From an uncultured Clostridium sp. (lineage in GTDB: Bacteria; Bacillota; Clostridia; TANB77; CAG-508), in the NCBI GenBank assembly GCA_900554635.1, contig USHY01000001.1, positions 18,728-82,727 on the forward strand: a DNA stretch of 64,000 bases, given 5' to 3'. A model generated the notes under the pieces. The model saw only the letters and a list, made by a program, of their open reading frames with translations. It made no database searches and was not told the origin of the DNA. Position numbers and translations under genes: made by a program. This document shows positions 12,620 to 13,809 of this stretch, piece by piece; within the stretch, counting starts at the first letter, position 1, and the number at the start of each line of letters is the position of its first letter.

Positions 12620-12651
12620 CTGTCATTACTCTGTCATTACTCTGTCATTTT
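12620..12651. repeat. Tandem 11-nt CTGTCATTACT x2.9, left copy of the direct repeat bracketing fic
   Basis: ctgtcattact ctgtcattact ctgtcatttt. Contains the fic TAA stop (minus sense TGACAGAGTAA x3). 24-nt identity with 13785-13808. Confidence 0.8.
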
Positions 12652-13632
12652 GTATTTTTTGTTTGGTGATTTTTCATTATCATTGGTGGTCTCAATTTTT
12701 TCATTTATAAGAAATTTTCTTAATATTCTTCTAACTGTACTATCAGATAATTTGGTTTGTTCTATAATATCTTTTGCTCCAATAATAACATTTCTTTTTA
12801 TACATTCCAAAACTTTAGATTCACTTTCTGAGAGCAGTAAATAAGATTTATCTTTCATTTCTTTGGAATTCATCATTTCATCTATAGTTTCACTTATTAT
12901 TTTTAACATAAATTCTATAAATTCATTTGATTTTCCAACATTATTACAATTTTGAATAGCAGTATAATATTCTTCTTGATTTTTCTTTATCATACTTTCA
13001 ATAGGTAAATATGTAAATGCTTTTTCCCAATGTGATAAGATTGCTGTTTGCCATAATCTTGCTGTTCTTCCATTTCCATCGTGGAAAGGATGTATAAAAA
13101 CAAATTCGTAATGGAATATACAAGAAAGTATTAATGGATTTACAGTTTCTTTAGATTTTCTCATCCAATCAAATAATTGATTCATTAAAGGATTTACCAT
13201 ATTCTCTGGTGGAGCTACAAATATTATTCTCTCGCCATCACGAACACATTCTCCATGATTTCTAAATTTACCTGCATCTTTTTCAATTAAAAAAGTTAAT
13301 GTTTTGTGTATTTTCTTCAAATCTTCTACAGAATAAGGATTTATTTTATCAATTTGTTCATATGCTTCATAAGCATTTTTTACTTCTTGTATATCTTTTT
13401 GTTCTCCTATTACTGGTTTTCCATTAATAACATCTTCTACTTGAAATAGTGATAACTGGTTGTTTTCTATTGCTAAAGATGAGTGTATTGACTTAATTCT
13501 TGTTTTTCTTCTCAATTCCGGATATCTATTTAAACTTTCAAAATAATTTGCTTCTCCAACTTTTTTCATAATTTCTGAAACATAGTTTAACATTTTATCA
13601 GTAATAGTATATGGTGGATAATTGTTTTCCAT
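12637..13632 (-). CDS. Fic family protein (AMPylase/phosphocholine-transferase fold) with C-terminal winged-helix
   Basis: Canonical Fic motif HPFHDGNGRTARL. 331 aa. Start at 13632. Confidence 0.85.
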   Translation of the reverse strand: MENNYPPYTITDKMLNYVSEIMKKVGEANYFESLNRYPELRRKTRIKSIHSSLAIENNQLSLFQVEDVINGKPVIGEQKDIQEVKNAYEAYEQIDKINPYSVEDLKKIHKTLTFLIEKDAGKFRNHGECVRDGERIIFVAPPENMVNPLMNQLFDWMRKSKETVNPLILSCIFHYEFVFIHPFHDGNGRTARLWQTAILSHWEKAFTYLPIESMIKKNQEEYYTAIQNCNNVGKSNEFIEFMLKIISETIDEMMNSKEMKDKSYLLLSESESKVLECIKRNVIIGAKDIIEQTKLSDSTVRRILRKFLINEKIETTNDNEKSPNKKYKMTE

Positions 13633-13787
13633 CTTTAACCTCCAAATAATTTTAATTCCTAGTTCTCTGGTAATTTTTCAATTTATTTATATTATATATT
13701 TTTTAAAAAATAATGTCAATAGTTGGTAACTGCCCAATATTGGAGTGAGTGCCATATTTTTATGTTAATTATAAGTACTATTTAAAC

Positions 13788-13809
13788 TCTGTCATTACTC
13801 TGTCATTTT
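13788..13809. repeat. Tandem 11-nt CTGTCATTACT x1.9, right copy of the direct repeat
   Basis: aaactctgtcattactctgtcatttta, about 155 nt upstream of fic start and ~185 nt from tRNA-Thr. Confidence 0.8.

Follow-up and report, generated by a model that had tools for sequence, protein, structure and literature searches.

Direct repeats around an accessory fic gene of an uncultured Clostridium are probably the 3' arrays of a live gene and of a deleted older copy

We analysed a stretch of 64,000 nucleotides (nt) of DNA, hereafter the window, from an uncultured Clostridium sp. (assembly GCA_900554635.1, contig USHY01000001.1), with regard to a gene for a Fic-family protein (fic) and a pair of direct repeats that lie near its two ends. 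The window has a G+C content of 28.6%. The fic gene is situated between a cluster of tRNA genes and a gene for a MurJ-like flippase, which the initial annotation of the window had called spoVB. That annotation described fic as precisely bracketed by two copies of a 24-nt sequence, and it proposed that these might be att-like scars of an inserted mini-cassette, a duplicated 3' gene end, or repeated operator sites. The features of the interval are as follows.

10896..12554, minus strand: MurJ / polysaccharide-synthesis family flippase gene, the conserved downstream boundary
12618..12651, minus strand: fic 3' array of three TGACAGAGTAA units, of which the first is (K)MTE plus stop and the last abuts the MurJ upstream region
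About 12619..13746, minus strand: segment present or absent among strains (promoter, fic and 3' array), from the alignment of alleles
12637..13632, minus strand: fic, open reading frame (ORF) of 331 amino acids, Pfam Fic 1.2e-20
13691..13719, minus strand: promoter-like site of fic, TTGACA-17-TATAAT, 12/12 matches to the promoter pattern
13734..13743, no strand assigned: perfect 10-bp palindrome CCAATATTGG, just upstream of the -35 box of fic
13747..13785, minus strand: post-array flank (P1) of the putative old copy, holding TTATAATTAACA and kept in empty and occupied alleles
13786..13809, minus strand: upstream array, two units here and 2-4 in other strains, probably the array of a deleted older fic copy
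13804..13831, minus strand: putative fic stub, with GGAGAG (ribosome-binding site), ATG GAA AAT AAT (MENN) and TAT AAA ATG ACA GAG TAA (YKMTE-stop)
13861..13908, minus strand: start-and-end stub of an HNH endonuclease gene that is intact, with 129 amino acids, in other strains
13995..14277, minus strand: tRNA-Lys, tRNA-Glu and tRNA-Thr cluster, which bounds the variable interval

The 24-mer ACTCTGTCATTACTCTGTCATTTT is present exactly twice in the 64 kb, at 12628-12651 and 13786-13809, with no copy expected in shuffled sequence; the two copies first described are real, and the position given for the right one (13785-13808) was one base too low. On the gene strand the repeat unit is the 11-mer TGACAGAGTAA (CTGTCAT plus 4 nt on the reverse strand), with three units in the left copy and two in the right copy. 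Tandem Repeats Finder bore out the description of each copy as a tandem 11-mer array, returning 2.9 copies for the left array (12618-12649) and 2.0 copies for the right array (13786-13807), both at 100%. Similarity between the repeats runs 9 nt past the 24-mer into the coding end of fic, for a total of 33 nt at 94%. As claimed, the left array supplies the last residues and the stop codon of fic (K-M-T-E-TAA, with TAA at 12637-12639). Its three TAA triplets had been taken to be in frame, but with a period of 11 nt each of them is in a different frame, and in the frame of fic the TAA is followed by TGA. The right array is separated from the fic start downstream of it by 154 nt and from tRNA-Thr (13995-14070) by 186 nt, in agreement with the approximate distances of 155 and 185 nt given earlier. 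Likewise in agreement, fic is the only ORF of note between the copies, its translation containing the Fic motif HPFHDGNGRTAR, and the ORFs between 9.5 and 17.5 kb of the window include no recombinase.

To compare the interval among strains, we took contigs encoding exactly this Fic, MurJ-like protein or PyrG from many metagenomes, mostly of the human gut; the compared loci are labelled with L-numbers (L002, L028 and so on). Four allele types were apparent for the interval between tRNA-Thr and the MurJ gene: (a) the window type; (b) a type without fic, found in L028, L036 and L125 and also, together with an intact HNH gene, in L029, L034, L035, L122 and L124; (c) a type with the HNH gene, two further genes and fic but no upstream array, found in L002 and L123; and (d) rearranged alleles with an insertion sequence (IS) in L010 and with retroelement genes in L033. 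The empty alleles consist, in order, of the stub, the upstream array, the same 40 nt as in the window, TAAAAAGGTG, GCTTTAAAAGC and the MurJ gene, with TAAAAAGGTG being a filler of 9-10 nt that replaces the variable segment. In the alignment of alleles, this segment has its downstream junction at 12618/12619, where the fic array ends, and its upstream one at 13746/13747, which is 40 nt away from the right repeat; the two junctions have no core in common. The present fic is an accessory segment downstream of the stub that occurs in only some strains, and its breakpoints do not use the repeats. Given that the variable segment leaves the right repeat outside, fic is not precisely bracketed.

Excision from repeat to repeat would leave the left flank, one array and CTTTAAAAGC. 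Empty sites do exist among the relatives, as the initial annotation had envisaged for an insertion, but they do not have the form of left flank, single repeat and right flank. Because the 40 nt and the filler are retained and the junctions share no core, the variation does not result from recombination between the two repeats. In allele (c), a perfect fic promoter directly follows the terminator of the neighbouring gene, and the presence of fic without an upstream array in this allele means that fic does not need that array. On these grounds, the suggestion of att-like scars was not upheld. The number of units also differs within the species, being 2, 3 or 4 for the upstream array and 2 or 3 for the downstream array (L004, L005, L122, L125), and the array is therefore also a variable-number tandem repeat that gains and loses whole units. 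The repeat pair is thus real and not a product of chance, and it does not delimit a mobile cassette.

The sequence adjoining the upstream array points to the origin of the right repeat. Immediately 5' of this array, the gene strand reads GGAGAG ATG GAA AAT AAT ATA AAA TGA, which as it stands is a 6-codon ORF (MENNIK). The 14-mer AGATGGAAAAYAAT occurs exactly at only two sites in the window, 13621-13634 at the start of fic and 13812-13825, 3 nt from the array, and the last six codons of the stub match the end of fic (Y-K-M-T-E-stop). The right repeat therefore has the appearance of the remains of an earlier fic copy, reduced to a ribosome-binding site, four codons of the start and six of the end, the array and the 3' flank. 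Most strains of the species carry this stub as a fixed feature. The 40 nt that follow the upstream array include the sequence TTATAATTAACA, which recurs at a distance of 13-16 nt behind the arrays of L011, L017, L054 and L099; fic is intact in L017 and L054, the match of L099 extends only over Fic residues 74-281, and L011 is a remnant. Partial deletion of fic was observed at other loci as well: L021 retains the first 36 and last 44 codons, L011 the last 48, L019 the last 19, and L023 only a few terminal codons, and L020, L026 and L027 gave split tblastn matches of the frameshift kind. Within the interval, the HNH gene has collapsed in the same manner.

We consider it probable that the two repeats are the same lineage-specific fic tail, derived once from the live copy and once from its dead neighbour, with the array marking the 3' end of the fic module. 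An earlier fic at the site would have collapsed to the stub, and the present fic would occupy the adjacent slot, corresponding to two successive occupancies rather than to a single tandem duplication. The 40-nt flank that follows the upstream array is present only once, which makes a clean tandem duplication unlikely. The proposal of a duplicated 3' gene end was thus correct insofar as the upstream copy is a fic 3' end, but the ribosome-binding site and start codon identify it as the stub of a whole earlier gene and not as a tail duplicated in place. When a new copy lands beside an old stub, an accessory gene can in this manner come to be flanked by direct repeats, and the lead toward a mobile element fails. 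As with other gene remnants of tRNA-linked hotspots, the upstream copy is a start-and-end stub that lies beside another stub (HNH), with several alternative alleles in the population; it differs from them in that the stub keeps a repeat identical to that of the gene in the next slot and so mimics a flanked cassette. With its fic stub, HNH stub and alternative alleles, the locus is a compact case of turnover at such a hotspot.

We examined the distribution of the array with two samples. A DNA scan for the 20-mer ATGACAGAGTAATGACAGAG, performed with one genome per species and itself selecting for the repeat, yielded 17 loci, 12 of which, from different species and with unrelated downstream flanks, corresponded to the 3' end of a fic homologue or of a fic remnant. 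The loci with fic were from low-G+C metagenome-assembled genomes (MAGs) labelled uncultured Clostridia or Clostridium sp., and the remaining five, L015 among them, showed no fic match. For the second sample, relatives were collected from metagenomes by protein similarity and the DNA after each stop codon was read. At least three cores of the form TG[AG][CT][AG]N[AT]G at 11-nt spacing, starting from or extending over the stop codon, were present at every distinct locus with an aligning Fic tail, a count that covers 22 distinct loci at 64-100% identity (the window and several remnants included), with two more remnants in addition. Among the relatives collected by protein similarity, this held for all those with an aligning C-terminus at 76% identity or more. 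No array was found after the stop codon of 14 relatives at 48-53% identity that have a different tail.

The array of this clade comprises three or four boxes, each with a core TGRCAnAG and 3 variable bases, at an exact spacing of 11 nt. All 59 units in 23 loci manifested this spacing, and the core TG.CA.AG was 95-100% conserved, with variants between lineages such as TGACAGAG, TGGCAAAG and TGGCGATG. A single array was present at each of the loci examined, in all cases at the 3' end of fic and in none at a promoter. It is invariably on the sense strand, where it creates an AUG that overlaps the stop codon (UAAUG or UGAUG). DNA homology between genomic contexts begins approximately 25 nt ahead of the ATG, or farther away in contexts that share an upstream partner or integrase gene, and stops at the position corresponding to 12610-12618 of the window, which is the end of the array. 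The array is lineage-specific to SoFic-like fic genes of low-G+C bacteria, mostly from gut metagenomes, and appears to be undescribed in the literature searched. A conserved 3' array of this kind is of moderate interest, and the locus overall is a modest curiosity.

A second Fic subfamily (L054, L057, L065, L099 and L116, compared with L055, L063 and L067) shares the catalytic part, with approximately 75-79% identity up to residue 254 (L053, L063, L064, L066, L068), and has a different winged-helix tail. This tail follows a TTQE-type repeat linker, which implies domain swapping in the 3' part of the gene. Members of the subfamily have decayed arrays of 1.5-2 units or none, with remnants present only in members ending in ...VE.

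With regard to the encoded protein, a class II inhibitory helix of the form (S/T)xxxE(G/N) is present as S-L-A-I-E-N at residues 52-57, N-terminal to the Fic motif, and is invariant in the alignment of relatives. The protein aligns end to end, tail included, with that of PDB entry 4RGL (E 1.9e-66), and it is matched by the PADLOC model for SoFic (E 3.1e-49). The tail gave a weak winged-helix match (HTH_24, E 5e-4) whose 20 bits are below the 21.9 cut-off, and a search of PDB with the C-terminal domain alone returned only insignificant matches to Z-alpha winged helices (E 0.15). The score against the NCBIfam SoFic equivalog NF046030 was 61.8 bits, far below the cut-off of 550, so that the window Fic, a class II enzyme, is a SoFic-like relative and not a SoFic orthologue.

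SoFic has been reported to AMPylate EF-Tu and to bind the DNA of its own promoter (bioRxiv 10.64898/2026.07.09.737422), and CccR of Yersinia pseudotuberculosis acts as a repressor of its own promoter by way of a pair of inverted 10-bp repeats that lie 26 bp apart (PMC9755527). DNA-binding-induced (de)AMPylation is named in the title of a paper on a Coxiella Fic protein (PMC10628234). Escherichia coli Sofic is a toxic protein that is reported to be counteracted by a small gene, AS1, located downstream (PMC12249575). The window Fic resembles SoFic of Shewanella oneidensis, CccR and the 4RGL protein in its active-site and inhibitory-helix motifs, its full-length alignment with 4RGL and its PADLOC match. 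SoFic acts as a single-gene anti-phage defence, and the window fic is similarly located in a strain-variable island; the fic genes of this lineage are candidate abortive-infection toxins. Members of the SoFic/CccR group bind specific DNA by means of a winged helix. The palindrome CCAATATTGG is a candidate autoregulatory operator of fic, on the model of CccR and SoFic.

Many relatives have fic as the downstream member of a gene pair, in which the upstream partner is a DUF6076-like gene whose product has a zinc-ribbon-like CxxC pattern (Pfam 1.8e-10 for L119). DUF6076 was not mentioned in the literature searched. The partner was located at the following positions.

L119, 2859-3983
L043, 2029-2976
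L017, 1210-1443
L118, approximately 3900-4000

The segment that contains the fic promoter also precedes the two-gene unit of partner and fic in L042-L044, and the window fic, which has lost its partner, is driven directly by the promoter of that unit. Whereas E. coli Sofic has the small AS1 antitoxin gene downstream, the relatives of the window Fic have the DUF6076-like gene upstream. L017 lacks the 5' part of the partner and has a transposase-like ORF at that point, as if an IS had inserted there. Genes for a tyrosine integrase and an excisionase-like protein adjoin the pair in L119 and L045, where the conserved block ends at the array (L119 compared with L045 and L043). The fic gene behaves as cargo on decaying integrative elements in accessory-gene hotspots.

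We assessed constraint on the array with 35 post-stop units from 13 loci that had not been chosen on the basis of DNA pattern. Consensus bases were present in 201 of 210 cells (96%) at core positions 1, 2, 4, 5, 7 and 8 (T G. C A. A G), compared with 112 of 175 cells (64%) at the other five positions of the unit. No array contained an indel of part of a unit, and three or four cores were kept at every locus whose array was examined. The array is thus likely to be under constraint, the comparison being one in which the core positions were picked after the data had been seen and the units within an array are not independent.

Such an array would be expected to be recognised by a protein head to tail, once per helical turn. 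Loci whose recognition helix is SDSTVRR have only TGACA-type cores, and G at core position 3 (TGGCA) occurs only with the helix DRT. Given that Fic is the only partner protein present in every genomic context of the array, we tentatively put its own putative C-terminal winged helix first among the candidate binders. Binding could tether or titrate the toxic Fic enzyme or mark the end of the transcription unit. A more specific proposal is that the array is a cis element of a two-gene DUF6076-Fic defence module, bound by the Fic winged helix or by the partner, and that it tethers or gates the AMP-transferase or defines an end for cutting and moving; we regard this as possible but doubtful. If this is correct, the array would be without known precedent as a DNA element that moves together with a Fic defence toxin and acts on it from the gene's 3' side. 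Winged-helix Fic enzymes have only now been shown to bind DNA, and the array provides a defined candidate site.

Among known systems, the array resembles the Pho boxes of PhoB, the sites of excisionases or recombination directionality factors, and the centromere or iteron arrays of plasmids, in that a core of 6-8 bp plus spacer is repeated three or four times with a turn of 11 bp. It differs from such phased winged-helix arrays in that the window contains no cognate regulator, excisionase or partition gene, and in that it overlaps a stop codon and is mostly located away from promoters. The repeats of type III toxin-antitoxin systems of the ToxI type have units of approximately 34-45 nt, are located upstream of the toxin behind a terminator, and fold into pseudoknots. 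The fic array is likewise attached to a toxic gene of the abortive-infection type but differs in its 11-nt units, its downstream position and the lack of a predicted structure or an Rfam match.

Several observations weigh against the interpretation of the repeats as conserved tails of two successive fic copies. An allele with the older fic intact (fic, array and TTTAAATAGTACTTATAATTAACA directly upstream of the MurJ gene) was not found among the recovered contigs, with the order of events being deduced, and the interpretation does not account for the 10-nt filler of the empty alleles. Over the first 22 nt that follow the stop codon, identity averages 0.62, compared with 0.60 at four-fold synonymous sites of fic, and at 41-62 nt past the stop codon it has dropped to that of random sequence (0.31-0.32); the clade is therefore young, and inheritance alone explains much of the persistence of the array. 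The covariation of helix and core is weak and coincides with a single clade split. The decayed arrays of the second subfamily fit a loss of constraint, yet they also indicate that the array is not strictly tied to one domain. Finally, CccR, and presumably SoFic as well, binds inverted repeats at a promoter as a dimer, whereas the fic array consists of direct repeats at the 3' end.

The alternative that survives best is that the array is functionless, a slippage-prone minisatellite that arose from the coding end of fic, ATGACAGAGTAA (M-T-E-stop), and has since been passed down within a young clade, its units being homogenised as copies were gained and lost. Consistent with this notion, the first unit is itself the coding end, copy numbers within the species range between 2 and 4, units are more alike within an array than between arrays, array identity is close to that of synonymous sites, and the array is decayed in the second subfamily. 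A minisatellite of this type would not, however, readily account for the near invariance of 6 of the 11 positions across lineages while five drift, for the exact 11-nt register of some 60 units without partial indels, for the retention of three or four cores in every array examined with none reduced to one, or for the extension of homology between contexts to the end of the array rather than only to the stop codon. We consider this explanation rather unlikely.

Action of the array in the fic mRNA, as an element of the 3' untranslated region or through termination-reinitiation at UAAUG or UGAUG, with control of the stability or translation of a toxic message, is less likely still. The constant sense orientation of the array, its beginning at the stop codon and the overlapping AUG fit such a role, and terminator-like hairpins seen by eye approximately 40 nt downstream of the array in L017 and L027 suggest that it would be transcribed. 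The mini-ORFs that start at the overlapping AUG nevertheless range from 2 to more than 29 codons without a conserved peptide, a result that also led us to reject a downstream small ORF like AS1 of E. coli Sofic; the array shows no complementarity to the 5' region of fic; a search of Rfam at the arrays gave no match; and an 11-nt period is typical of recognition of one face of DNA, not of known RNA-binding arrays. A gene for an 87-amino acid membrane protein follows fic only in L042-L044 and L118. We also rejected a three-frame stop signal, given that TGACAGAGTAA units provide TAA and TGA in all frames and TGGCAGAGTTA-type arrays provide none.

The arrays might instead be phased boxes for a regulator of the OmpR/PhoB or a similar type, providing -35 regions and co-regulating fic and the MurJ-like gene. 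The reverse-strand CTGTCAT plus 4 nt matches what we take to be the half-site of the E. coli Pho box. The same 20-mer is located between a histidine kinase gene and a gene that appears pstS-like from its ORF in a Thiotrichaceae MAG (L015, 1507-1531); reading this site as a Pho box makes the fic array identical in sequence to that type of operator on the opposite strand. Both window arrays also have a -10-like hexamer 16 nt further on (ATGACA-16-TATAAT and ATGACA-16-TAAAAT). An outward promoter with the last unit as its -35 region, although compatible with both window arrays, was rejected as a general role: a -10 box is found at 16-18 nt in only 5 of the 26 arrays, about as many as chance would give. 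The array accompanies fic into unrelated contexts and stays with no downstream gene; fic has its own perfect promoter nearer its start, which is retained where the upstream array is absent; and the core bases drift among lineages, which would be unexpected for a conserved host regulator. Co-regulation by such boxes is accordingly quite improbable. The idea of repeated operator sites holds to the extent that the array looks like one for protein recognition, but it travels with fic and not with downstream genes. A GG-N10-GC spacing like that of sigma-54 promoters was rejected as well, fitting only TGGCA-type arrays.

Insertion of a fic mini-cassette by a site-specific recombinase acting in trans, with the arrays as attL and attR, is very improbable: direct repeats do flank a lone accessory gene beside a tRNA cluster, fic presence does differ among strains, fic of L119 and L045 does lie approximately 2-3 kb from a tyrosine integrase gene and an excisionase-like gene with the array as the far end of that block, and fic remnants do adjoin tRNA 3' ends in L011 and L019, but the empty sites hold the 40 nt and 10-nt filler between a single array and the right flank, the upstream breakpoint lies outside the repeat at a junction without a common core, L002 and L123 carry fic without the upstream array, every other locus has one array per fic, and array-like sites are absent near the integrase end of L119. 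An integrase is located near fic in only some relatives (L119, L043). In comparison with phased att arms, the array of L119 and L045 ends the integrase-excisionase block on the side distal to the integrase, with no matching integrase-proximal site. We give low weight to arm-type integrase or excisionase sites, the sole core candidate being a 15-nt AT-only match that could be due to chance. The array as a terminal recognition site of a mobile block is a further alternative.

Several additional features of the locus and its relatives were observed. In related strains, the anticodon loop of tRNA-Thr(UGU) contains an insert of approximately 230 nt that Rfam matches to a group I intron at 36.2 bits (E 7e-8), under the gathering score of 50. 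An intact 129-amino acid HNH gene is present just downstream in all six insert-bearing loci; the HNH gene is also intact in L035, which is cut off before the tRNA. Strains without the intron, including that of the window, have only the HNH start-and-end stub. The positions of the intron and HNH sites, respectively, are as follows.

Window, 13995-14070 and 13861-13908
L002, 3870-4160 and 4245-4634

It looks, from this co-occurrence, as if a group I intron and a free-standing homing endonuclease travel together.

In L033, genes of a diversity-generating retroelement (bAvd and reverse transcriptase) and a gene with a MutS_I domain lie right upstream of fic at 789-2825, where they replace the tRNA side. 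Relatives of Fic were not found in viral contigs. The contig of a T7-like phage (L130, 11850-12092) ends in tandem 11-mers of GATGACAGAGN after four 22-nt repeats; this contig is G+C-rich and unrelated, and we rejected a phage link based on its three-unit match as probably coincidental. A gene for a coupling protein of the TraG-D_C / TrwB type is located a few kilobases past pyrG in most strains (L001, 44-1345; on the window side, beyond approximately 17.6 kb) and is absent within 6 kb in L002 and L010, which hints at a possible remnant of an old conjugative element nearby. The window also contains an array of clustered regularly interspaced short palindromic repeats (CRISPR) at 63391-64000, which runs off its end and comprises at least 10 copies of the 36-nt repeat GTTATAGTTCCATATTATATTTTGATATGATATAAT with spacers of approximately 30 nt.

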